Counted from the stretch's first letter, positions 30,755-52,567 are shown. The stretch: DNA of 53,821 nucleotides from a virus (IMGVR_UViG_3300006124_000002:1-53821); one strand, 5' to 3'. Notes: generated from the sequence alone by a model not told the origin. Numbers and translations are program-made.

Positions 30755-30806
30755 AGTTGATGCAAATACTTGTCTTTGTTTCTAAAAGTTGTCAATACTT
30801 TTGGAC

Positions 30807-32732
30807 ATGGAATATAACGGATTTTCTTTAGAGCAACCAAAAGATACAAATTACGGAATACCAAATTTGATTCATGTTCCACAAATGTTTCGTGAGCTAA
30901 CGGCATATCGTTTGACTCGTGGAGAGTTTGGAAGACGTGAAAGAATCAAAAATGGTATTAAATTAGAACAATCTGGTTTGTTAAATCCTGCACAGCACAT
31001 GATCAATGCCTTCCAATTGATCTACGGCAATGATGTTTTGCTCCATTCTCAAGGAATACCCAACAATTATGCCATAGACATTATTGATTTGTTTTGTAAT
31101 GAGAACGATTGGGGCATTGCAGGGTGTGCAAGTAGTGGAAAAACCTTTTCAGTTGCCGCTTGCATTGTGATTGATTGGCTTTGCGCCCCCGATTGTACAT
31201 CCACATATGTTGCTTCTACCTCTTTGGACGCATCAGAAGACCGTCTTTGGGGTAAAGTATGTACGCTTTACCGTACAGCAATGAGGAATATTCAAGCCCA
31301 ATATGGTGCAAATCAGAGTATTGGAAACCTTGTAGAGTACCGTAGAATGATTGTTTTTGAGACAATTGACACCAAAGATACGGAACGAGACTATACAAAT
31401 GCTATTAAAGCATTGGCTTTTCCCAAGGGTGGTGAAGGAAAACGGTCTGTAGAAAATACACGGGGTAGAAAGAATGCCAGAATGCGGTTGTTTTTGGACG
31501 AATTGGCTGAAATGGATCTCTACGCATTGGATACCCGTGTCAACCTTGGTGCTAACCCCGATTTTATCTTTGGCGGCATGGCAAACCCAGCGGCTACCGC
31601 AAACAATCCCCATACGGAGCTATGTCAGCCCGATGATCCTATGGAATGGGATGCCGTAACCCGTTACACAAAGAAATGGAAGACTCGTACAGGAGTAGCA
31701 TTGCATCTTTCTGGAGAAGATAGTCCAAACTTCAAGGTTCCAGATGCTGAAATACCCCCATTTGATCGTTTCCTTACCGTCCAAGGAGAGGCCGCTACTT
31801 TAAAACGATGCTATGGCAATAAGAATGCCCTAGAATACTGGCGAAATGTCTATGGATGGTGGCCCGATTCTTCCGTAGAACTCACAATCTTCTCAAAACA
31901 GTTCATTCAAGCGTGTGATATTAATTGGGAACCCGTATGGAGTAACAGAACACGGGTAGTTTGCGGCTTTGACCCTGCATTTACGGCAGGAGGAAACAGA
32001 TGTGCGGCTACATTTTGCCGATTTGGGCCAAATGATACCGGGAGAAACCTTGGATTCTACCTTGGAACCCGTGAATATACCTCATCTGTGGGTGATGTTT
32101 TTGAGGAAAGCATTGCAATGCAGTTGGTTAAAGATTGTTTGGAATATGGAGTCCATCCAAGGGACTTTGGATTGGATATTTCGGGTGATGGCGGCAAGAT
32201 GATGAGGGCAATTATCATCGAATGGAGTAAGTTCCATCCAGAAGCCATGTTTGTATTCCCCATTTCCTCAATGGGAATGCCTACGGAAAGGAAAATCAGC
32301 AATCTGGATAAGCGAACTTGTAAAGAAGCGTATGATCGGTTGGTTACGGAGTACTGGTTTGCCGTCCATACGGCCCTGTCTACACGCTCTTTGGTTGGTA
32401 TTGATGTAGAGAAGCACTCTCAAGTAGTAAACGAGTTGTGTAGCCGTCTGTACTACCACAAGGGAAGGAAGGTTGCCGTGGAAAAGAAGCTGGATATGAA
32501 GCATAGGTTGAAGAAATCTCCCGATTTGGCTGACTCTTTGACCTATGCCGTCCAGATGCTTCGCCGGGCAGGACTAGAGTTTTCGTTTGAGGAGGAGTCA
32601 GAATCTTTGGACATCCAAGAAATCAGCGATTGGGAGAACCGATTGATCCATTCCAAAAACAACACCCAAGAAAAACTTGAGGATGATGAATGGGGATATG
32701 GTGGCAAGGGTTGTGATGAGGACGGCTTCTAG
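30807..32732 (+). CDS. terL: Terminase large subunit
   Basis: Walker A GCASSGKT, Walker B LFLDELAE, motif C MANP, nuclease CGFDPA and KSPDLADSL. Confidence 0.9.
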   Translation: MEYNGFSLEQPKDTNYGIPNLIHVPQMFRELTAYRLTRGEFGRRERIKNGIKLEQSGLLNPAQHMINAFQLIYGNDVLLHSQGIPNNYAIDIIDLFCNENDWGIAGCASSGKTFSVAACIVIDWLCAPDCTSTYVASTSLDASEDRLWGKVCTLYRTAMRNIQAQYGANQSIGNLVEYRRMIVFETIDTKDTERDYTNAIKALAFPKGGEGKRSVENTRGRKNARMRLFLDELAEMDLYALDTRVNLGANPDFIFGGMANPAATANNPHTELCQPDDPMEWDAVTRYTKKWKTRTGVALHLSGEDSPNFKVPDAEIPPFDRFLTVQGEAATLKRCYGNKNALEYWRNVYGWWPDSSVELTIFSKQFIQACDINWEPVWSNRTRVVCGFDPAFTAGGNRCAATFCRFGPNDTGRNLGFYLGTREYTSSVGDVFEESIAMQLVKDCLEYGVHPRDFGLDISGDGGKMMRAIIIEWSKFHPEAMFVFPISSMGMPTERKISNLDKRTCKEAYDRLVTEYWFAVHTALSTRSLVGIDVEKHSQVVNELCSRLYYHKGRKVAVEKKLDMKHRLKKSPDLADSLTYAVQMLRRAGLEFSFEEESESLDIQEISDWENRLIHSKNNTQEKLEDDEWGYGGKGCDEDGF

Positions 32733-32788: not shown

Positions 32789-32865
32789 TGGCACAGCCTG
32801 TTGGAATCGAACCAACCCAGTCGGATTTGGAGTCCAACTCGCCCATCCTTGGAACATGAGACTGC
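32789..32865 (-). tRNA. trnW: tRNA-Trp (CCA)
   Basis: Acceptor GCAGTCT/AGGCTGT, anticodon arm TTGGA-CTCCAAA-TCCGA, T arm GTTGG-TTCGATT-CCAAC, G73, encoded CCA. Confidence 0.88.
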
Positions 32866-36538: not shown

Positions 36539-36612
36539 TACCGATTGGTGTAACGGTAGCACAGGGGACTTTGACTCCCCTAGTCATGGTTCAAATCCAT
36601 GATCGGTAGCCA
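36539..36612 (+). tRNA. trnQ: tRNA-Gln (TTG)
   Basis: Acceptor TACCGAT/ATCGGTA, anticodon arm GGGGA-CTTTGAC-TCCCC, T arm CATGG-TTCAAAT-CCATG, encoded CCA. Confidence 0.93.
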
Positions 36613-39276: not shown

Positions 39277-40131
39277 ATGAGCAAAGAAAAAGTTGACGTA
39301 TATCAAATTGTAACTGACAGAATCATCGACTTGTTAGAAGATGGTGTTGTTCCTTGGCACAAGCCATGGGCGGGAGGTAGTAATCAACTACCCATGAACC
39401 TTGTGAGTAAAAAGGCTTACAGGGGACTAAATGTATGGTTACTCTCATGCTCTGGTTATGCTTCCCCTTATTGGGTAAGTTACAAACAGGCAACAGAGTT
39501 AGGTGGACAAGTTAGGAAGGGTGAGAAATCAACCCTTGTGGTCTACTGGAAGATGTTTGAAACAATCGACAAAGACACAAAGGAGAAAAAGGTTATCCCG
39601 ATGCTCCGTTACTATAATGTATTTAATGTTAGCCAATGTGACGGAATTAATGTCCCAGATACGGAGACGCAACCAACGATAGATTTCAATCCTATCGAAG
39701 AAGCGGAGAAAATCGTAGCTAATATGACGAAGGTTCCACGCATCACTCATATTGAGCAACAGGCTTATTATAACAGGTCAAGTGACCATGTTAATATGCC
39801 ACAGAAAGAAACCTTCAAAGGTGAGGCTGAATACTACTCGACCCTGTTTCATGAGTTGACGCACTCAACTGGCCATGAATCCCGGTTAGGGAGGTTTCAG
39901 AATCAAGTTAGTAAATTCGGTGATAGCAACTACGCAAAAGAGGAATTGATTGCCGAGATGGGAGCTAGTTATCTGTGCGCGATGGCTGGCATTGTTGATC
40001 GCACAATCGACAATAGTGCCGCTTATATTGCCAACTGGTTGACCAAGCTACGCAACGACAAAAAGCTAGTAGTTAGTGCGGCGGGAAAAGCCCATGCCGC
40101 TTGTGATTATATCCTTGGAGTTAGTGCCTAG
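39277..40131 (+). CDS. ardC: ArdC-like antirestriction protein (ssDNA-binding domain plus zincin domain)
   Basis: VTDRII..LE.GVVPWHKPW, YRGLN, GGQVRKGEKS, VFNVSQ, YYSTLFHELTHSTGH, YAKEELIAE; AAGGAG SD. Confidence 0.92.
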   Translation: MSKEKVDVYQIVTDRIIDLLEDGVVPWHKPWAGGSNQLPMNLVSKKAYRGLNVWLLSCSGYASPYWVSYKQATELGGQVRKGEKSTLVVYWKMFETIDKDTKEKKVIPMLRYYNVFNVSQCDGINVPDTETQPTIDFNPIEEAEKIVANMTKVPRITHIEQQAYYNRSSDHVNMPQKETFKGEAEYYSTLFHELTHSTGHESRLGRFQNQVSKFGDSNYAKEELIAEMGASYLCAMAGIVDRTIDNSAAYIANWLTKLRNDKKLVVSAAGKAHAACDYILGVSA

Positions 40132-43182: not shown

Positions 43183-43214
43183 TCGGGCGGGAGCCATGAA
43201 CAACTCCCGCCCGA
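43183..43214 (+). terminator. Strong intergenic hairpin before the recombination genes
   Basis: 11-bp stem TCGGGCGGGAG/CTCCCGCCCGA; no U-tract on the plus strand. Confidence 0.45.
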
Positions 43215-43243
43215 ATATGCAGAGCAACCACGCACCACAATAC

Positions 43244-44053
43244 ATGAACACAAATACTAATACACTCGCTGTTAGTCAACCCTCTATGGGGGAAATGGAA
43301 AAGATGGCACTTGCCATCGCAAAATCGGGCCTTTTCGGGATGAAATCTCCCGAACAGGCACTCGCACTTGGACTCCTTGCAGTATCCGAGAACAAACCAT
43401 TCGCCAGCATTTGCGCCGAATACGATGTTATCCAAGGCAGACCAGCACTCAAGTCACAGGCTTGCTTGGCTAGGTTCCAACAGGCAGGGGGAACCATCCA
43501 ATGGATCACCCGCACCGATAAGGAATGCACCATCGAAGGCAAACACCCCGCTGGTGGTACTCTCAAAGTAACTTGGACTTGGGAAAGAGCGACCACCGCT
43601 GGACTTACGAACAAGTCAAATTGGAAGCAGTATCCGACTGCAATGCTATCTTCACGATGTGTTGCTGAATTGGTTAGGGCAATCTATCCCGCTTGCCTAA
43701 ATGGAGTGTATCTTGCCGAAGAGGTACAGGATTTTGATACCAAGCCGCTTGGAAGTCCTCTTGCTCGTATTGAAAAGCCTGTAATCAAGGCTGAAGAGGC
43801 AACCCCTATCGTTGCCGAGTTGGTAGCGGAAACCGAGCCACAGGAGGCTCCAGAACTTCCACAGACCCCGGTTGATATGCTCATTAGCATGATGACTACG
43901 GACAACATAAGCGACGATCATGTTTTGCATTTCCTGTATGCGAAGAAGGCAATCAAAGATCGGAATATCTACATTTTCGACATTCCCGAAAAGATAATAA
44001 ATCGTCTCATCGAAAAGTGGGATGATGTCAAAGCATTTAAGCCAGCAATCTAA
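43244..44053 (+). CDS. RecT/Red-beta-like single-strand annealing recombinase
   Basis: IAKSGLFG...VIQGRPAL...A..AGL..K.NWKQYP.AML..R....VRAIYP...GVY.AEE. Confidence 0.75.
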   Translation: MNTNTNTLAVSQPSMGEMEKMALAIAKSGLFGMKSPEQALALGLLAVSENKPFASICAEYDVIQGRPALKSQACLARFQQAGGTIQWITRTDKECTIEGKHPAGGTLKVTWTWERATTAGLTNKSNWKQYPTAMLSSRCVAELVRAIYPACLNGVYLAEEVQDFDTKPLGSPLARIEKPVIKAEEATPIVAELVAETEPQEAPELPQTPVDMLISMMTTDNISDDHVLHFLYAKKAIKDRNIYIFDIPEKIINRLIEKWDDVKAFKPAI

Positions 44054-44340
44054 TGATTAAAAACATAACCCACAGAGAATTAGTCTTAATCCTTTTGCAG
44101 ATTCATCAGGAGATTCCTTCAAAGTTTATTAAACATTGGATAAAAATCACGATAGTAAAACTTAATAGCTATGAAGAAAGATCCAACAAAGCAGAAAAGG
44201 AATTGGCTTTCTACAAACACTCTTTTGAGTTGATTCAGAAAGCAGAGAAAAAAAGCAAACAATACAGAAGGATTGAAGGAAATAACTTTATTCAAAGGTT
44301 TCTTCAATTTTGCAAAAAAACTGCTCAAAAAAATGACTGA
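44053..44340 (+). CDS. Hypothetical protein, 95 aa (AT-rich)
   Basis: ORF inserted between the recombinase and the exonuclease. Confidence 0.55.
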   Translation: MIKNITHRELVLILLQIHQEIPSKFIKHWIKITIVKLNSYEERSNKAEKELAFYKHSFELIQKAEKKSKQYRRIEGNNFIQRFLQFCKKTAQKND

Positions 44341-45406
44341 CGAACGCAAAGGAAAGCCGTCTTGTAGCGGAATCTCTCGACTTGCTCTCTGTGCAGGATC
44401 GTGGAACCTAGAGTCCACGCTACCTCCACAGGAGGAGAATAAGTATATGCAGTTGGGAACGGATATTCATGCCGTTTTAGCTGGTCAGAAAGACTTTGAT
44501 TCCCTCACCGAAGAGGGTCAAGAAATCGCAACCAGATGTTTATCTCAATACGGTGAGTTAATTGCTCAATTGGACTTGGGAGAACGCACTAGGGAGATTG
44601 TTGAAGAGCGGTATTGGTACAATGATCTATTCTCTGGAGCAATTGACAGGATCGACTTCTTTGGCGAGGAGACAGCACTCATCACCGATTACAAGACAGG
44701 TCGAAACGCACAGAGCAATGCCGCTGAAAATTACCAACTCCGAGCATATGCGGTACTGGTCAAGAAGGCATTTCCTCAACTTAAAACCATCTATGTTTCA
44801 ATTGTGCAACCAATGGCAGGGGGAAAGACCATTGCGGAATACAATAAGGATGAGTTAGCACAGGCTGAAAAGGAGATTGTTGGCATCGTTAATGCTTCAT
44901 CATTTCCTAATGCTCCAAGAACTCCTTCTCCAGATGCTTGTAAGTGGTGTCGCGCTAAAAGCATTTGTCCAGAGGCTTATGGCAACCAGCAAGCCGCTAC
45001 AACAACGCTACAGGTAGCCTCTACCGTTGCCGTATCGACCTTATCCAATGAGGAATTAGCTTCTTTGGATGCCAAGGCCGAGGTAGTTGAGGATTTCATT
45101 GACGAGATCCGAAAGGAACTAAAGGCAAGGCTTATTGCAGGAGCGCAAATTGCTGGACTGTCCCTGTCAAAAGGACGAACATCCAGAAGTGTCTCCGATA
45201 CAAATGCCGCTATCTCTGCACTTTCTGGTACTCTGTCACAAGATGCTATCTTATCTTGTGCAAAGATCAGCGTCACGGCATTGGAAAAGGCAATTGCAAA
45301 GGCAACTAACACAAAGGGCAAAGATGCAAAATCTAAACTCGACGAGGCACTTGGTTGGCTCATCGAAACAAGTGAAGGTGAACCATCCATCAAGCGTGAC
45401 AAATGA
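44333..45406 (+). CDS. PD-(D/E)XK Cas4-like exonuclease (DUF2800-like)
   Basis: GTDIH, SGAIDRI, ITDYKTG, QLRAYA, C..C.A...CP. Confidence 0.8.
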   Translation: MTDERKGKPSCSGISRLALCAGSWNLESTLPPQEENKYMQLGTDIHAVLAGQKDFDSLTEEGQEIATRCLSQYGELIAQLDLGERTREIVEERYWYNDLFSGAIDRIDFFGEETALITDYKTGRNAQSNAAENYQLRAYAVLVKKAFPQLKTIYVSIVQPMAGGKTIAEYNKDELAQAEKEIVGIVNASSFPNAPRTPSPDACKWCRAKSICPEAYGNQQAATTTLQVASTVAVSTLSNEELASLDAKAEVVEDFIDEIRKELKARLIAGAQIAGLSLSKGRTSRSVSDTNAAISALSGTLSQDAILSCAKISVTALEKAIAKATNTKGKDAKSKLDEALGWLIETSEGEPSIKRDK

Positions 45407-46994: not shown

Positions 46995-47322
46995 GGCTAG
47001 AGGAAACACTACCCGCCGAGTGGCGGGTAAGATGAACAAGACTGAAGAGGCTTATTCAAATACTCTACAAGAAAGGAAACTCCGAGGAGAGATTCATCAT
47101 TGGAGCTTTGAAACAATCACCTTAAGATTGGCAGACAGAACAACCTATACGCCAGATTTCTTTTTGATGTTACCTAACGGAGAGATCCAGTTCCATGAAG
47201 TCAAAGGTTTCTGGCATCAAGCTGGACGCATTAAAATAAAAGTAGCGGCTGAAAATCATCCTTGGTTTGACTTCCAAGCAGTACAACTCAAGAAAAAGGA
47301 GTGGGTCTATGAGCAGTTTTAA
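46981..47322 (+). CDS. PD-(D/E)XK endonuclease (DUF1064-like, possible resolvase)
   Basis: MNKTEEAY...TYTPDF...FHEVKGF. Confidence 0.75.
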   Translation: MRRFRARGNTTRRVAGKMNKTEEAYSNTLQERKLRGEIHHWSFETITLRLADRTTYTPDFFLMLPNGEIQFHEVKGFWHQAGRIKIKVAAENHPWFDFQAVQLKKKEWVYEQF

Positions 47323-48004
47323 TATTAATAATAAATGGTCTGTTCAACAGATTTCATTTTCTGATGTTGAGCCTTGGTTATTGAAACGCCATTATGCCAG
47401 AAGGATTCCACCTATTTCTTATGCATTTGGTGCATTTGAGGGTAATAATTTGATTGGAATTATTACATATGGAGTTCCTTTAAGCTCCACATTAAGAACT
47501 GGAATATGCGGTGAAGAATATGAACATTTAGTTCTTGAGCTTAATAGGCTTTGTTGCAGGAATGAAAAAAATATAGCAAGTAGATTAGTTTCCAACTCTA
47601 TGGATTTAATTCGAAAACCAAGAATAATTGTTAGTTATGCAGATACATCACAAGGTCATGTGGGATATGTGTATCAAGCAACCAATTTTATTTATACTGG
47701 ACTCACGGCAAAAATGATGGATTGGAAGGTTAGGGGTAAAGATTCTCTTCATCATTGTTCTATTGGTGATGAGTTTAGGGGACAGGAAAATAGATCCCAA
47801 AAAATGAAAGAAAAGTATGGAGACCTTCTTTACCAAGAGGAAAGATCCAGAAAGCACAGATATGTTTTTTTTATAGGAAATAAGAAAGAAAAAAAGAAAA
47901 TTAAATCAGTATTGAAATACGAAATAAAACCTTATCCAAAAGGTGAAACAAAAAAATATGATTCAAGCGGGTATATTGAAACTCAAATGCTTTTAATTTC
48001 ATGA
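47309..48004 (+). CDS. mom: Mom-like DNA adenine modification enzyme (GNAT fold)
   Basis: HYA.R.P...AFG...GIITYG.P...LELNRL...IVSYAD..QGHVGYVYQATNFIYTG...KHRY. Confidence 0.8.
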   Translation: MSSFNINNKWSVQQISFSDVEPWLLKRHYARRIPPISYAFGAFEGNNLIGIITYGVPLSSTLRTGICGEEYEHLVLELNRLCCRNEKNIASRLVSNSMDLIRKPRIIVSYADTSQGHVGYVYQATNFIYTGLTAKMMDWKVRGKDSLHHCSIGDEFRGQENRSQKMKEKYGDLLYQEERSRKHRYVFFIGNKKEKKKIKSVLKYEIKPYPKGETKKYDSSGYIETQMLLIS

Positions 48005-48498
48005 ACGAGGAACATTCTGATGACAAATGCCCCTGCTGTGGGCGACCATATGATGAACCAGCAGGAAAGAAGCCTAGACGCAATCTGAAAGCTATTGGAG
48101 AGGCTTTTGATGTGTTCTGGAAGGCTTATCCTAGAAAGACAGGAAAGGGGGCGGCAAGGGCGGCATGGGCCAAGAACAACCTACCTCCACTTGAGGACAT
48201 CCTGGCGGCACTACGGAAGGCTATTGCCTCTCCAGATTGGCAAAGAGAACAGGGCAAGTTTATTCCTCACCCTTCCACATGGATCAATCAAGCTCGGTAC
48301 GAGGATGAAGGAATGGACTATGCGGCATTAAGCCAAAGACCACAAAGACCAGTATTCAATACTCCTGTATCGAATACGGACGCACAGGCATTCAGAGAAT
48401 GGATGATTGAACAGGGTTATCCAGCCCAATTTCTGGATACTCCGTTCAAGGATTGTCCTAGCCATGTTCAGCAACAATATAACAACCGAAACAAATGA
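48001..48498 (+). CDS. Replication initiator C-terminal-like domain protein
   Basis: FDVFWKAYPRKTGKGAARAAW...W..EQGKFIPHPSTWINQARYED. Confidence 0.65.
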   Translation: MNEEHSDDKCPCCGRPYDEPAGKKPRRNLKAIGEAFDVFWKAYPRKTGKGAARAAWAKNNLPPLEDILAALRKAIASPDWQREQGKFIPHPSTWINQARYEDEGMDYAALSQRPQRPVFNTPVSNTDAQAFREWMIEQGYPAQFLDTPFKDCPSHVQQQYNNRNK

Positions 48499-48659
48499 GT
48501 GAAGATACGCAAACAGAATTAGAATCAGAACTACGACTCAAGATCATCTATCTTGAGGAGGTTATCAAAAAAGTTATGGAATTTAACAGTATGGGAAAGA
48601 CGCTGAAGATCCATGAACTCTGTGCAACGGCATTGGAAAACATGGAGGAAACCAAATGA
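48495..48659 (+). CDS. Hypothetical protein, 54 aa
   Basis: Hand-translated; ATGA-coupled at both ends. Confidence 0.55.
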   Translation: MSEDTQTELESELRLKIIYLEEVIKKVMEFNSMGKTLKIHELCATALENMEETK

Positions 48660-48916
48660 ACCCCGACACCACACCAACACCGAGGACGGAAATCTATATT
48701 CTCGACCCTCTTCCTCCATGCGTTCCCGCTGAATTTGCTTGTGATCTAGAACGCGAACTCACAGAGAAAAACAACGAGGTCGCAAGGCTCAGGAAGCTTC
48801 TGAACCGAGCGATTGAAGCCATTCCAGATTCTCTCATGGATGAAGACGGGGGGCTTTACGAGAACACCGAACACACGAAGCTCAAAGCAGAACTGATCAA
48901 AAAAAGCAAAATATGA
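48656..48916 (+). CDS. MNPDT/NEVARLR modular protein, 86 aa
   Basis: ORF track; contains both repeats. Confidence 0.7.
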   Translation: MNPDTTPTPRTEIYILDPLPPCVPAEFACDLERELTEKNNEVARLRKLLNRAIEAIPDSLMDEDGGLYENTEHTKLKAELIKKSKI

Positions 48917-49497
48917 GCGACAACGAATGGCGAGAGCTTGGCCCTGACGAGATCCCACAAACAGGAGACCAATCGTATGACGGCAATCTTTTTGAATGGG
49001 TTCATATTAAGTATTCAACCAAGGAGCCAGCGAGTAAGTTTTTGTTTCCTATCCGCACCCGCCGCCCGTTGCCAAAGCGGGAGGCGAAACCCATCGACAA
49101 CGAGATCGTAAGGCTCAAAGAGATGATTAAAGAAGCCGCAAAGCGTGGCGACGAAATGGCCGAGCATTGGAAAGAGCGAGCCGAGAAAGCTGAAGCACTC
49201 GTTAAACAACTCCACCACCTAGCAAAACTACTACCCGAAGCTAGTAAAACCGAATTACCACACACCGATAGTATGTCAACGAGCACAGACAATTTACAAA
49301 TGACAACGAACAATGACAGCGAGGTCGCAAGGCTCCGTGAGCTTTTGAGCCGAGCGATTGGTCATATATACCAACTGTATTTGGATATTGATCCATCTGA
49401 CTACCCAGAAGGCCACGAATATTATAAAAGAGAAATAGAAGACCTTGAAAAATTAACCCGACTCGCCCCCGCTCCAGAGGAACCTTGCAAATGTTAG
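48913..49497 (+). CDS. Modular protein with two NEVARLR-type repeats, 194 aa
   Basis: ORF track; N-terminal WRELGPDE....GD module. Confidence 0.7.
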   Translation: MSDNEWRELGPDEIPQTGDQSYDGNLFEWVHIKYSTKEPASKFLFPIRTRRPLPKREAKPIDNEIVRLKEMIKEAAKRGDEMAEHWKERAEKAEALVKQLHHLAKLLPEASKTELPHTDSMSTSTDNLQMTTNNDSEVARLRELLSRAIGHIYQLYLDIDPSDYPEGHEYYKREIEDLEKLTRLAPAPEEPCKC

Positions 49498-49632
49498 TTG
49501 AAAATCTACAAGAAATACTGAAAAACATTAGAGAATCTGTATGAGTATAATTTTTCCTCATACATTTTTAGAATGGGTTGCGCTTTTGTTAGGTTTCGCA
49601 ATTTATAAGCTAATTAAACACATAATAACAAA

Positions 49633-50043
49633 ATGAACCCCGACACCACACCAACGCCGAGGGATGAGCAAATCTGGACAACCGAATATCACCATGAACT
49701 GTGTGATGTGGTTGATATGGAATTTGCCCAACAGCTAGAACGCGAACTCGCCGAGACAACCAACGAGGTCGCAAGGCTCAGGAAGCGGTTAGAAAAAGCC
49801 GAAGAACTAATCCGAGGTCTGCACGATGGGTGGAAAAAAGCAAGAAAAGCTCACCTTGAAACCTGTAAAAATGCCCAAGCGGAAATTGAAAAGCTCCACA
49901 CCGAAAATGTCTGCCTTCAGGAACTCATCCAAGAGTTCTACGAGTGGACTAGGCGAGACTACCCAACGGAAGCCGAAGTCCGAGAGATCATGGATCGCTA
50001 CTACGATCTACTAAACCATAACCCGAACAATAAACCATCCTAG
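49633..50043 (+). CDS. MNPDT/NEVARLR modular coiled-coil protein, 136 aa
   Basis: ORF track; contains both repeats. Confidence 0.7.
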   Translation: MNPDTTPTPRDEQIWTTEYHHELCDVVDMEFAQQLERELAETTNEVARLRKRLEKAEELIRGLHDGWKKARKAHLETCKNAQAEIEKLHTENVCLQELIQEFYEWTRRDYPTEAEVREIMDRYYDLLNHNPNNKPS

Positions 50044-50096
50044 TTTACTGAAACACCACAACAAATAGAAACATCAACACCACATTCAATAATAAT

Positions 50097-50729
50097 ATGA
50101 ACCCCGACACCACCAAAATGGAAACGCTAAATAAAGAACTCAACTTCATAGGCTTCCCTAAGATTGCACGGCTTAATCGCCAAGTCATCGTCACCGAGAA
50201 GATCGATGGAACTAATGCTCAGATACGCATCACTAAAGATGGTCAATTCCTAGTGGGGTCTCGCTCTCGCTGGATAACTCCTGATAACGACAACCACGGA
50301 TTCGCTAAGTGGGCATACGCCCATAAAGACTCCCTGATGGAGCTAGGCGTAGGCTCCCACTTCGGAGAGTGGTGGGGAAGTGGCATTCAGCGTGGCTATG
50401 GATACACGCAGGGAGAGAAATTCTTCTCCCTATTTAACGTACAGCGTTGGTGCTTGGAGGGAAGTGCCCCGCAAAAGATGCCTACCGCTGACCCTCGCAT
50501 TGAGAAATACCAAGACGTTCTTCCTGCTTGCTGTGGCCTTGTTCCGATTCTTGGAGTCGGAGACTTCAACGAGGCGAACAAGCAGATTGAGCGGCTAAAG
50601 ATCGAGGGGAGCCAAGCCGTAAAAGGATACATGAATCCAGAAGGAGTGATTGCGTTTCACGTTGCTGGAAATGTGGGATTCAAGGTCACGATTCAAAAAG
50701 ACGAGGAACCGAAAGGAAAAACAAAATGA
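50097..50729 (+). CDS. RNA ligase (Rnl2-type adenylyltransferase domain)
   Basis: FPKI.R, motif I TEKIDGTN, GSR.R, FGEWWGSGIQ, F.LF, PEGV, FK. Confidence 0.85.
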   Translation: MNPDTTKMETLNKELNFIGFPKIARLNRQVIVTEKIDGTNAQIRITKDGQFLVGSRSRWITPDNDNHGFAKWAYAHKDSLMELGVGSHFGEWWGSGIQRGYGYTQGEKFFSLFNVQRWCLEGSAPQKMPTADPRIEKYQDVLPACCGLVPILGVGDFNEANKQIERLKIEGSQAVKGYMNPEGVIAFHVAGNVGFKVTIQKDEEPKGKTK

Positions 50730-50932
50730 ACCCCAACAACAGCATTACCGAGTTCAGCAATCAACTCCTCGACGTTTGCGTCGAGTACCGAAAGCAACTC
50801 GACGAAACAAACAACGAGGTCGCAAGGCTCCGTGAGCTATTGGAGAGGCTATGCGATTCCGTTTTTGAAAATTGGGATGAAGGTATCGCCAATTATTTCC
50901 GCGAGGAAGCCAACAAGCTACACAACAAATAG
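50726..50932 (+). CDS. MNP/NEVARLR modular protein, 68 aa
   Basis: ORF track; contains the repeat. Confidence 0.65.
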   Translation: MNPNNSITEFSNQLLDVCVEYRKQLDETNNEVARLRELLERLCDSVFENWDEGIANYFREEANKLHNK

Positions 50933-50960
50933 AAACATCAACACCGAATTCAATAAGAAA

Positions 50961-51470
50961 ATGAACCCCGACACAAACAAATGCCCCAACTGCGGTGCTG
51001 AATTTGCAACACTCACAGACGGAACCACATTTACCTGCGGAACCAACCGCCACCCAGACGGGTCTCACTCTTGTTCCGACCTCTGCCGCGAGCGCGAGGA
51101 GAACACCAAGCTCCGAGAACTTCTCCATTGTGCGGCTGATGATCTCCAGCGGGATGATGCGGTTCGCGCACAGGCCCAGCGCGCACTTTACAAATTTCTG
51201 AAAAAGGGAGTCCGACTTACCCACGCTCCAGAGGAACCAACTAATCCGACTTGCCATAACACCACGCACAAATTCAGCCATTGCGATTGTAACGAACCTG
51301 TCAGTTTAGATCCTGCATCAAAAGTCACCCATGAGGGGAATGTCCATGCAAAGGATAAACAGCAAACCAACGAGATCGCAAGGCTCCGTGAGGAGATTGA
51401 TAAATTATGGGAGGCTTTATCAGAAAAAGAAGACCGAAGGACGTCAACGGCATGGTTCCAACTCAAATGA
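50961..51470 (+). CDS. MNPDT modular Cys-rich protein, ~169 aa
   Basis: Start at the repeat ATG 50961; CPNCG...FTCGT, APEEP, NEIARLR. Confidence 0.65.
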   Translation: MNPDTNKCPNCGAEFATLTDGTTFTCGTNRHPDGSHSCSDLCREREENTKLRELLHCAADDLQRDDAVRAQAQRALYKFLKKGVRLTHAPEEPTNPTCHNTTHKFSHCDCNEPVSLDPASKVTHEGNVHAKDKQQTNEIARLREEIDKLWEALSEKEDRRTSTAWFQLK

Positions 51471-51874
51471 GCCAATTCACTCAAACAGAATGCGAGCTTA
51501 AAAGGCTTTATGGATCGCATGAGAATAAAAGAAAGCCAGTTCCTGCTCTGTTTGCAATTAGGCTGGAACAACAACTGGAAAAGAAAAAACTAAAATTTGA
51601 ATCACTAAAGCACCTTTTGAAATTACAAGAAAAGTCTTGTAAGAAGATGGGGCAAAAAATCAATAGCTTAAATAAAATAATATCTTCACAGAATGGTGCG
51701 TTAAATCAAATAACTGCGGACGCAATAAATCTCCGTGAACAACGAGACAGAGCGATTGAGATTGCGGATGAGTTTTGGAAAAACCAAAAGCAAGCCGTGA
51801 CCGTTTGGCATTATGAGTTGGCAGATGAGCTTCAAGCCATCCGAGACGAGATCCAGAAGCTGAAATCCAAATGA
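51467..51874 (+). CDS. Coiled-coil hypothetical protein
   Basis: ATGA-coupled; VPALFA..LE...EQRDRAIE. Confidence 0.6.
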   Translation: MSQFTQTECELKRLYGSHENKRKPVPALFAIRLEQQLEKKKLKFESLKHLLKLQEKSCKKMGQKINSLNKIISSQNGALNQITADAINLREQRDRAIEIADEFWKNQKQAVTVWHYELADELQAIRDEIQKLKSK

Positions 51875-52101
51875 GCGACACACCACAGTCAGACAAATTC
51901 GGGGAAGCATTGCGCCACAACTGGATTGAAAACCCGCATTGGGAGGACACAAGGGATGCCCATGATCTGTGCAGGAAGATCGAAGGGCAACTCACTAGGG
52001 CAGTAGCAATCTGTGATGCTATGATGGCATGGGAAACCCCACAGGATGCTAGGAATACATCCAAGGATCTTTCTAAACTCAAAAAGGAAATCAACGAATG
52101 A
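51871..52101 (+). CDS. Hypothetical protein (MSDTP...), 76 aa
   Basis: Coupled ORF, distantly similar to the DT.TP modules upstream. Confidence 0.6.
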   Translation: MSDTPQSDKFGEALRHNWIENPHWEDTRDAHDLCRKIEGQLTRAVAICDAMMAWETPQDARNTSKDLSKLKKEINE

Positions 52102-52280
52102 CCGACATATCCAAATGCCAGAACACAGATTGTCCCTCGCATATTCAATGCTGGAGGTATCTAGCCCCGGCATCAGATTACCAAGCATATGCAGACTTTA
52201 AGCCAGAAGAAGGACAAGACAAATGCGAATACTTTGAACAGGCTGATTGGCACTACAGCAAAAAGGGATTCAAAAAATGA
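52098..52280 (+). CDS. Small Cys-rich protein, 60 aa
   Basis: DISKC....CP....CWRY...Q.Y..F......CEYF. Confidence 0.65.
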   Translation: MTDISKCQNTDCPSHIQCWRYLAPASDYQAYADFKPEEGQDKCEYFEQADWHYSKKGFKK

Positions 52281-52567
52281 AATCACCAATTGATGACATA
52301 CTAAAAGAGATTGGGTTAGAGACTCCCGATCTTCCTCCAATAAACAAGCGGGAAGCTATCGAAATGGGTCTTGTAGAGGGTCGCGAGAAACCCAAGAAAG
52401 GCATTTGCGGCAAGAGTGTCTATCCCTCTCAAGCCAAGTGCAACCAAGCCATCAACCACTTACTCAAGAACGGCAATTCCAACACCAGTTTCCTCCGGGC
52501 ATACCAATGCGACGAGTGCAAAGGAGGATGGCATATGTCTAGCTTTAACCCAAACAAACGGAAATGA
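52277..52567 (+). CDS. Zinc-binding hypothetical protein
   Basis: CGK..Y.S...RAYQCDECKGGWHMSS. Confidence 0.65.
   Translation: MKSPIDDILKEIGLETPDLPPINKREAIEMGLVEGREKPKKGICGKSVYPSQAKCNQAINHLLKNGNSNTSFLRAYQCDECKGGWHMSSFNPNKRK

Follow-up and report, generated by a model that had tools for sequence, protein, structure and literature searches.

The window analyzed here, i.e. the whole stretch IMGVR_UViG_3300006124_000002 (53,821 bp), is a complete metagenomic record of a freshwater phage with direct terminal repeats, whose early region ends in an array of small genes assembled from recurring in-frame DNA repeats (hereafter linkers). The segments flanking these linkers are combined in a near-random manner, shared sequence tracts begin and end at the linker edges, and close relatives of the phage carry insertions/deletions (indels) and chimeric genes with junctions in the repeats. 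Comparative sequence analysis indicates that the array most probably reflects population-level shuffling of small coiled-coil early proteins by short-homology recombination at GC-rich, in-frame linkers that evolve in concert. The array would then represent a local sample of a large pool of small helical early-region phage proteins built from interchangeable modules, whose joints would be the core (AAC)GAGGTCGCAAGGCTC, encoding NEVARL, the start linker AAATGAACCCCGACACCAC, the LAPAPEEP end linker and the RTRRPLP linker.

All genes of the array are located on the + strand. Gene 1 (86 amino acids [aa]; 48656–48916), an open reading frame (ORF) without a family match, is composed of a start module, a LEREL module, a core and a C-side module (RKLLNRAIEAI...). 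Gene 2 (194 aa; 48913–49497) contains the RTRRPLP linker, two cores (NEIVRL and SEVARL) and the end module RLAPAPEEP, while gene 3 (136 aa; 49633–50043) carries the start and LEREL modules, a core and a predicted helical C domain. The following gene (50097–50729), which also begins with the start module (MNPDTT), encodes an RNA ligase: its match to PF09414 (E 1.2e-13; 52.1 bits vs a curated cut-off of 27) places it in the Pfam RNA_ligase family, it matches phrog_548 (E 4.3e-31), and its translation contains KIDGT, which we take to be the nucleotidyl-transferase motif. Gene 5 (68 aa; 50726–50932) consists of an N module, a core and a C module, and gene 6 (169 aa; 50961–51470) of the start module, a Cys-rich N part, the end module RLTHAPEEP and a core (NEIARL). 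Gene 7 (135 aa; 51467–51874), predicted to form a coiled coil, has a decayed core (AINLREQRDRAIEIADEFW) and is missing from the relative L089. Every copy in the array lies in an ORF that is complete, from its own ATG to its own stop codon; neither a silent cassette nor an expression site is present.

The core 19-mer CAACGAGGTCGCAAGGCTC occurs six times in the window, at 48772, 49098, 49317, 49761, 50812 and 51368 (0, 2, 1, 0, 0 and 1 mismatches, respectively), and was not matched in 100 dinucleotide-preserving shuffles. In the whole genome there are six forward and no reverse matches, all on the + strand, each in the frame of a + strand ORF and none intergenic. In terms of the 18-mer AACGAGGTCGCAAGGCTC, encoding NEVARL, copies 1 (48773–48790), 4 (49762–49779) and 5 (50813–50830) are exact, whereas copies 2 (49099–49116; NEIVRL), 3 (49318–49335; SEVARL) and 6 (51369–51386; NEIARL) differ by two, one and one mismatches, respectively. 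Given the codon usage of the window (AAC.43, GAG.39, GTC.17, GCA.35, AGG.25, CTC.13), the exact six-codon spelling of NEVARL is expected about 3 times in 10,000, and it was found in 3 of the 3 NEVARL copies. The synonymous identity of the core copies thus exceeds codon bias.

The remaining repeats show the same organization. The start module ATGAACCCCGACAC is present in exact form at 48656, 49633, 50097 and 50961, with a fifth copy (two mismatches) at 50726, compared to a chance expectation of 0.26; copies 1 and 2 are alike at 29 of 30 nucleotides (nt), and 94% identical over 36 nt. The start linker defined above lies at 48654–48672, 49631–49649, 50095–50113, 50724–50742 and 50959–50977, and was found in 31 distinct contexts in other loci. 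The LEREL module CTAGAACGCGAACTC occurs in two exact copies (48746–48760 and 49735–49749), each upstream of a core. The end module repeat (49458 and 51212) is 27 nt long with 89% identity; the end linker within it (49462–49484, second copy at 51216–51238) was detected in 35 stretches of viral contigs and in 36 distinct contexts elsewhere. Thus, the three repeat types described in the initial annotation lie where it placed them, and codon counts and ORF frames bear out its view that they are conserved in frame at the DNA level, synonymous sites included.

Two repeats had been missed by the initial annotation. The RTRRPLP linker ATCCGCACCCGCCGCCCGTTGCCAA (49051–49075; approximately 72% GC in the consensus) recurs in other loci, where its 25 distinct contexts vary in sequence on either side. 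A 61-nt repeat (90% identity; 50057–50117, partner at 50921–50981) covers a stop codon and gene end, the intergenic spacer and the start module. The stop codon of gene 3 is followed by CACAACAAATAG (50041–50070), which corresponds to the last codons and stop of gene 5 (HNK*); this segment of the 61-nt repeat looks like a remnant of the end of another gene at a cassette boundary. In addition, the short sequence CAAATGAGC, spanning a stop/start overlap, is found at 51464–51472 and again at 51868–51876, and this pair flanks the gene 7 indel that distinguishes the window from L089. In gene 7, the decayed-looking core is followed by an intact C-side module (AINLREQRDRAIEIADEFWKNQKQAVTVWH), which in L067 stands behind an exact core; judged from its sequence, this copy looks like one that has dropped out of the exchange pool.

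Scanning of viral contigs with the 18-mer AACGAGGTCGCAAGGCTC, with one degenerate position allowed, revealed at least 118 stretches. Among the matches listed, approximately five contexts are unrelated, i.e. three portal genes plus L009 and L104. The portal-type genes (L012, L033 and L099) carry the Ile variant of the 18-mer (INEIARLY) within a wholly different protein, and these matches are probably due to chance. In prokaryotic genomes (596 billion bases, no degenerate position) 23 stretches were found, compared to about 17 expected by chance according to an arithmetic estimate. The only prokaryotic contig with family-like copies is a 35.7-kb contig of a Spartobacteria metagenome-assembled genome (L134/L138), containing two copies (LERDLVEKT-NEVARLRELLN and NEVARLRELLDE); it may hint at a prophage and a Verrucomicrobiota host, or may be a mis-binned phage contig. 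The fraction of a locus that aligns to the window has a median of 4.4%, and the matches pile up at 48.5–51.5 kb. Since the loci share little besides the array region, the motif marks a sequence pool common to otherwise dissimilar phages.

Conservation of the core at the DNA level extends to these loci. Among the matches listed, the 183 distinct xE[VI]ARLx peptides are encoded with GCA in 177, AGG in 174, GAG in 171 and CTC in 167 cases, and the Arg codon directly after the core varies (CGT 99, AGG 32, CGC 9, CGA 7, AGA 3). The same preference was observed in loci reached without the core motif, i.e. via the gene 3 C domain, the end linker or a neighboring gene: of the 86 distinct peptides there, 75 have AGG and 79 have GAG, compared to a background of 17–25% for AGG (the Mom-like neighbor gene as an anchor yielded two loci only). 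The island of conservation is sharp: the frequency of the commonest base is at least 0.9 through the 18-mer, is partly raised 3 nt before and 6 nt after it, and beyond that lies at background (0.3–0.45), although the center of the island is partly fixed by the manner in which the copies were collected.

To describe how modules are joined across the core, 203 distinct contexts of 258 nt each, with up to three core mismatches, were gathered from the matches listed, and their flanks were clustered at 80% identity over 60 nt. Among these matches, the flanks of 198 distinct contexts yielded 125 clusters upstream and 105 downstream, in 187 combinations. One upstream cluster with 10 members has 10 different partners, and 10-member clusters in general have 9–10. 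The number of pairs sharing both clusters (15, compared to 2.9 under random pairing) shows that association across the core is weak but not nil, i.e. near-random. When the C domain of gene 3 served as a search anchor, more than 10 unrelated N sides were found in front of it, with the switch at the core, and for every one of the six window cores, one to eight contexts elsewhere match on a single flank only. Among the matches listed there are 138 distinct complete proteins that bear cores (17–569 aa, median 129), many of them with two to four cores in a bead-like arrangement.

The breakpoints sit at the core edges. Among the 20,503 context pairs from the matches listed, 85 have nothing but the downstream flank in common and 60 nothing but the upstream flank; both flanks agree in 5. 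The shared tract begins within positions −6 to +5 of the 18-mer in 61 of the 85 pairs, and ends at +18 to +29 in 54 of the 60.

Comparison with the close relative L089 (92–93% identity in the shared parts) revealed that the two arrays differ by three indels, each flanked by direct repeats (17, 25 or 9 nt). L089 lacks genes 1–3 (a 1441-nt indel), with the junction in the start module that stands at both ends of this segment in the window. Its gene 5 contains the N and C modules of the window gene with two extra modules between cores (291 nt, with a 25-nt overlap). L089 also lacks gene 7 (a 404-nt indel), with the junction at CAAATGAGC, a copy of which stands at either end of this segment in the window. 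A second relative, L074, contains three chimeras: (i) the N side of gene 3 (97% over 301 nt) joined in frame to the C side of gene 5, (ii) a foreign N side joined to the C side of gene 3, and (iii) the N part of gene 6 fused at APEEP to gene 2-like modules. The indels in L089 and the chimeras in L074 indicate that gene order is not fixed. Exchange exactly at the repeats, which the initial annotation had proposed to look for in related genomes, was therefore found in the joins, the breakpoints and both relatives, while a fixed gene order without breakpoints at the repeats, named there as the outcome that would speak against it, was not seen. A strict indel scan (blocks at least 88% identical, 150-nt threshold) detected seven events, five of them distinct; the number is small because most modules are shorter than the block threshold.

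Relatives of the RNA ligase gene in L065, L089, L180 and L053 all open with ATGAACCCCGACA and differ from one another in the DNA upstream of it and in the residues that separate MNPD from the conserved FPKIARLN. Since ATGAACCCCGACA is kept while both sides vary, the start linker serves the enzyme gene as well. Selection for efficient translation initiation could contribute to the conservation of this linker.

An unguided 14-mer scan recovered the end, start and RTRRPLP linkers and a second core allele, GAGGTCGAGAGGCT (AEVERL), i.e. four more sequences whose flanks vary on either side. All linkers have a GC content of 59–78%, compared to 46% for the region. The second allele, as GCCGAGGTCGAGAGGCTY (AEVERL), was detected in 73 stretches, mostly on other contigs, and its 65 contexts (56 upstream and 47 downstream clusters, 62 combinations) show the same pattern as NEVARL. 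When the locus was taken as the unit of the test, 79.8% of 99 copy pairs within loci shared the same allele, compared to 52.7% after shuffling (none of 2000 shuffles was as high). The core linker is not a universally constrained site; it is homogenized within gene pools and drifts between them, which is the signature of concerted evolution.

No real family was matched in Pfam by any of 132 members of the protein family, and searches of the array proteins against Pfam, PHROGs and NCBIfam yielded only weak coiled-coil look-alikes, the RNA ligase apart; 25 sequence relatives bear no informative names. These results lend no support to the proposal, made in the initial annotation, that the array is an anti-defense library. 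The proteins appear to constitute a large unnamed family of modular coiled-coil early proteins of uncultured freshwater phages. That they share a coiled coil, as was also proposed, is plausible: the model of gene 3 in a protein atlas (predicted local distance difference test [pLDDT] 0.81) has long helical hairpins and dimeric coiled coils as its nearest folds, at scores below the bar for naming a family. The hexapeptide NEVARL, which we take to be part of the GCN4 leucine zipper, also turns up in literature on tagging tools and coiled-coil design, as judged by titles, though in no phage paper that was found; this would fit a zipper role.

Regarding association between different members, a two-chain model of the proteins of genes 1 and 5 scored 0.40, compared to 0.15 for the best of three controls, with agreement between runs in at least 47% of contacts and a partner pLDDT of at least 63. 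Of 78 solved complexes, 51 reach the mark applied to such models, as do 2 of 108 mismatched pairs; at scores of 0.60 or under it is reached by only 5 of the 78 and by all 4 passing mismatches (of 180). The hetero-association of these paralogs that the initial annotation had envisaged is therefore a weak lead only.

The comparisons show that modules are exchanged, inserted and deleted at the linkers with the frame preserved. Three routes could account for this: (i) recombination between co-infecting or resident phages, (ii) unequal exchange between copies in one genome, and (iii) single-strand annealing between direct repeats. All three would act inside identity tracts of 17–35 nt and would swap, insert or delete modules or genes with the frame kept. 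Because every product would carry a hybrid linker, the linkers would evolve in concert, with identical synonymous sites, between adjoining modules that are unrelated. We infer that the exchange is performed by phage single-strand annealing proteins and exonucleases (RecT-like in the window, Erf-like elsewhere); the linkers may persist because they recombine, and the core peptide may act as an oligomerizing zipper. The commonest same-strand neighbors of the arrays within 8 kb are an exonuclease (15 loci), an Erf-like annealase (14), a second exonuclease family (9) and a RecT-like protein (9). According to the available part of one report, Rad52-like phage recombinases recombine short, diverged homologies, and the minimal efficient pairing segment of Red-beta is 23–27 bp (PMC3945230). 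Among 18,779 pairs with unrelated flanks, the exact tract through the core is at least 18 nt long in 42% and at least 23 nt in 14%.

Several observations weigh against this explanation. In 86% of the pairs the exact tract is shorter than the 23–27 bp given for Red-beta in the available part of that report. An annealase gene lies within 8 kb of the array in only 23 of 154 loci, many of which are short, a count that has no background control. The case for recombination at the linkers is wholly comparative and drawn from assembled contigs. The stretches of the 18-mer scan, at least 118 in number, were collected with the exact motif, so that counts from them are biased, and the independently found set of 86 peptides is small. 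Most loci with the first allele apparently come from related freshwater data sets, and the 24 sequencing runs in which the window was matched (assembled contigs only) are all freshwater metagenomes of 2017, possibly from a single campaign. Moreover, within the lineage of the gene 3 C domain the nucleotide identity of the core (0.842) is no higher than that of the domain (0.848), with identical codons in 0.80 (core) and 0.72 (domain) of same-residue pairs. Since the core is no better kept than the neighboring domain, there is no sign of special purifying selection on the linker, which agrees with concerted evolution but weakens the claim that it is kept for recombination.

The alternative closest to the initial annotation, in which programmed high-frequency cassette shuffling within each genome gives each burst a variant library, seems unlikely. 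The array does have several direct repeats in one orientation and frame within 3 kb, an annealase and an exonuclease are encoded nearby, linker alleles are homogenized within loci, and contigs of the same metagenomes join the left side of one core to the right side of another (e.g. 48790>50812 and 49779>50804). However, the sides of these joints are short (20–54 letters) and the contigs come from mixed communities, so other phages explain them equally well. Window-type arrangements recur unchanged across several runs and loci (L101 and L172, at 100%), all copies are complete genes with neither an expression site nor silent cassettes, and the scan of ORFs, which was not exhaustive, turned up no dedicated recombinase, reverse transcriptase or invertase. 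What remains of the proposed cassette-shuffling system is exchange between genomes of a population, to which all the exchange evidence refers; a dedicated, high-frequency system within one genome is not supported. A still smaller likelihood is assigned to artifactual joining of contigs at shared repeats during metagenome assembly, which is hardly credible: everything compared was assembled from metagenomes, with junctions that coincide with exact repeats, but 76 of the 203 contexts among the matches listed recur in at least two loci, the frame is open in 171 of the 203, and contigs from other runs cross the window cores without a difference (e.g. X9, 48622–49653; X14, 50192–51097). In addition, repeats of 17–35 nt are shorter than the reads and the final k-mers of the usual assemblers.

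It is also quite improbable that the conserved 15–18 nt are a cis-acting site, either a GNRA-capped RNA hairpin (GGUC-GNRA-GGCU) or a protein-binding DNA site, with coding and homology as by-products. A GNRA loop is present in 244 of 283 core copies (GCAA 186, GAGA 42, GAAA 10, GTAA 3), each of the four stem pairs is present in 245 to 283 of these copies, the fold is predicted for GTC-bearing copies (48776–48790 in the window and other cores), and Arg is encoded by AGG, as needed by the hairpin, in 87–95% of copies. The hairpin is nevertheless weak (−2.5 to −6.3 kcal/mol; z +0.2 to −1.5), 15–106 of 200 shuffles folding equally well, and compensatory double changes are lacking: the Ile variant gives an A-C mismatch in 38 copies and A-T in only 3. 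About 200 copies are all in one frame on the coding strand and none lies between genes, a restriction that a pure site would not impose. Furthermore, two gene pools carry different alleles, the core diverges in step with the neighboring domain, and there is neither an Rfam match nor an excess of promoters or terminators. A similarly low probability is given to ordinary shuffling of paralogous and orthologous domains, in which joins arise by random illegitimate recombination, selection retains those that are in frame at a zipper conserved at the protein level, and DNA identity reflects recent descent. The motif is a plausible heptad coiled-coil segment with a role in the protein, its first codon varies mostly by amino acid change, and along one lineage the core diverges like the neighboring domain. 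Codon identity across unrelated flanks is, however, far above codon bias, shared tracts stop at most a few bases away from either edge of the identical stretch, the indels between close relatives are flanked by the repeats themselves, linkers that are not zippers (the start codon region, APEEP and RTRRPLP) behave alike, and linker alleles are homogenized within loci.

A more far-reaching version of short-homology shuffling, which is doubtful but less so than the alternatives above, regards the array as a natural building-block kit. GC-rich, frame-preserving linkers would persist as annealing handles for the phages' own recombinases, through second-order selection or GC-biased conversion at hotspots, and any N, internal and C module of the pool could be joined in one step. 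Through the zipper encoded by the linker the products, different paralogs made in one cell included, would oligomerize, and each phage would have a rapidly renewable, combinatorial set of homo- and hetero-oligomeric early effectors, most plausibly for host take-over or counter-defense, and NEVARL and AEVERL would mark separate compatibility pools.

The array (regional GC content 46%) forms the end of a co-oriented early block, downstream of RecT-like, exonuclease, resolvase, Mom-like and replication genes. This block comprises an anti-restriction gene, genes for a RecT-like annealase, an exonuclease and a Holliday-junction resolvase, a Mom-like modification gene and a replication-initiator-like gene. 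The annealase noted in the initial annotation is confirmed as a RecT-like single-strand annealing protein (43196–44053, + strand; phrog_4171, E 5e-16; phrog_561, E 1.3e-14), followed by an exonuclease that is its likely partner (44273–45406, + strand; phrog_69, E 4.3e-47). The anti-restriction protein (39277–40131; phrog_7245, E 1.3e-82) and the Mom-like DNA modification protein (47267–48004; phrog_1384, E 1e-55) are encoded in the same early block as the array. Two tRNA genes, tRNA-Trp (CCA, minus strand; 32789–32865) and tRNA-Gln (TTG, plus strand; 36539–36612), flank a group of small ORFs that separates the packaging genes from the early region. On the structural side (1–32700, minus strand), 8 of 10 large ORFs have no PHROG family at E≤1e-5, and only a tail-fiber-like tail end and the large terminase (30789–32732) were recognized. 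A blastn search of the array region (48000–52500) against 50,697 deposited phage records gave no nucleotide match. The phage lineage appears to be very divergent.

The behavior of the array matches the classical linker model of modular phage evolution, whose best-studied cases are the PeSL cassettes (reportedly also the subject of Comeau et al. 2014, PMC4122927) and the adhesin motifs of T-even phages; the array is a member of neither. In the literature on motif peptides, linker sequences and intragenic mosaics no description of this motif or system was found, supplementary files lying outside the search. As summarized in the available part of PMC2839356, the linker model (Botstein 1980; Susskind and Botstein 1978) holds that homologous exchange at conserved flanking linkers keeps a module in its place, and in this respect the array is alike. 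In contrast to the classical linkers, which lie between genes or functional modules, those described here are 17–25 nt long, intragenic and frame-preserving, and occur in well over 100 contigs.

PeSL cassettes of T4-type phages, in the accessible portion of their description, are intergenic, with a sigma-70 early promoter and a terminator stem-loop, and their mini-circles were demonstrated by inverse polymerase chain reaction (Arbiol et al. 2010, PMC2839356). In both systems, as far as that portion goes, short repeats flank small genes of unknown function, recombination between copies explains indels and replacements, and an integrase plays no part. PeSL-like behavior is seen for the start module together with its 61-nt repeat and for the indel of three genes (1441 nt) against L089, and the three indels between the window and L089 are repeat-bounded differences between close relatives. 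The main linker of the window, unlike the intergenic PeSL of that account, lies in frame inside genes and gives rise to chimeric proteins; no core extends into intergenic DNA, which is reached solely by the start module and its 61-nt repeat. Between 47900 and 52600, 4 promoter-like sites (5.3 expected) and 5 terminator-like sites (6.1 expected) were detected, none of them at the + strand repeats, though the scan does not cover the promoter types of the host. The intragenic position of the cores and the lack of a promoter or terminator at the repeats rule out membership of the PeSL class.

In T-even phages, the glycine-rich motifs of gp38 and the motifs of gp37 are a case of conserved-motif shuffling (Trojet et al. 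2011, PMC3157838; Tetart et al. 1996, 1998 cited there). The likeness, judged from the part of that text available, is that in-frame conserved motifs part variable segments and that exchanges occur at the motifs, as was observed here. The T-even proteins of that account serve as adhesins of the virion, each phage having a single such gene whose motifs keep a fixed order, and host range is the known reason for their selection, whereas the window has many small early genes, several linkers and unrelated modules in near-random assortment. Identity as a tail-fiber adhesin was rejected owing to the early replication/recombination location and the lack of a structural family match. Relaxed recombination by Rad52-like proteins (De Paepe et al. 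2014, PMC3945230) is alike in that Red-beta, RecT and Erf annealases make mosaics and such genes adjoin the arrays; in the accessible part of that study, however, the homologies span hundreds of bp with identity tracts of 11–298 bp, and are not isolated islands of 18–35 nt. Ea22/Ead of lambda is an oligomeric protein from an early gene located by exo and the recombination genes, in which the central coiled coil lies between an N end that is short and variable and a C-terminal domain that is variable and mosaic (PMC10834534). Its likeness to the array proteins is architectural only, and the available part of the description mentions no DNA-level linker. None of the 132 members matched the Ead_Ea22 family (PF13935) at E≤0.001, and a lead from a language model (0.83) fell below the bar of 0.9.

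The array was also compared with other systems that generate variability. In the Borrelia vls and Neisseria pilE/pilS systems, in-frame variable segments bounded by short repeats recombine to form chimeras; they work with a single expression site and with silent cassettes that lack a promoter, and gene conversion runs in one direction. Silent-cassette antigenic variation is incompatible with the finding that every copy in the window is a complete ORF with its own start and stop codon. Integron cassettes, which end in attC sites formed by imperfect inverted repeats, were discarded, since no integrase was found among the ORFs scanned (not all were) and only weak, scattered inverted repeats (I1–I9) are present. 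Finally, no long repeat pair with adenine-specific differences, as expected for a diversity-generating retroelement, was detected, nor was a reverse transcriptase among the scanned ORFs, for which no dedicated search was made.

Mosaicism in phages has been disputed as resulting either from homologous exchange at conserved linkers or from random illegitimate joins sorted by selection. The array locus would be an unusually clean natural case of the linker route, acting inside genes rather than between them, and stands out for the scale of the exchange, for linkers that preserve the frame and for the presence of two compatibility alleles. With hundreds of observable junctions, several linker types and two alleles marking separate gene pools, it makes this dispute directly testable. 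If the linkers do work as annealing handles, they would also provide a ready-made design rule for domain shuffling in vivo.

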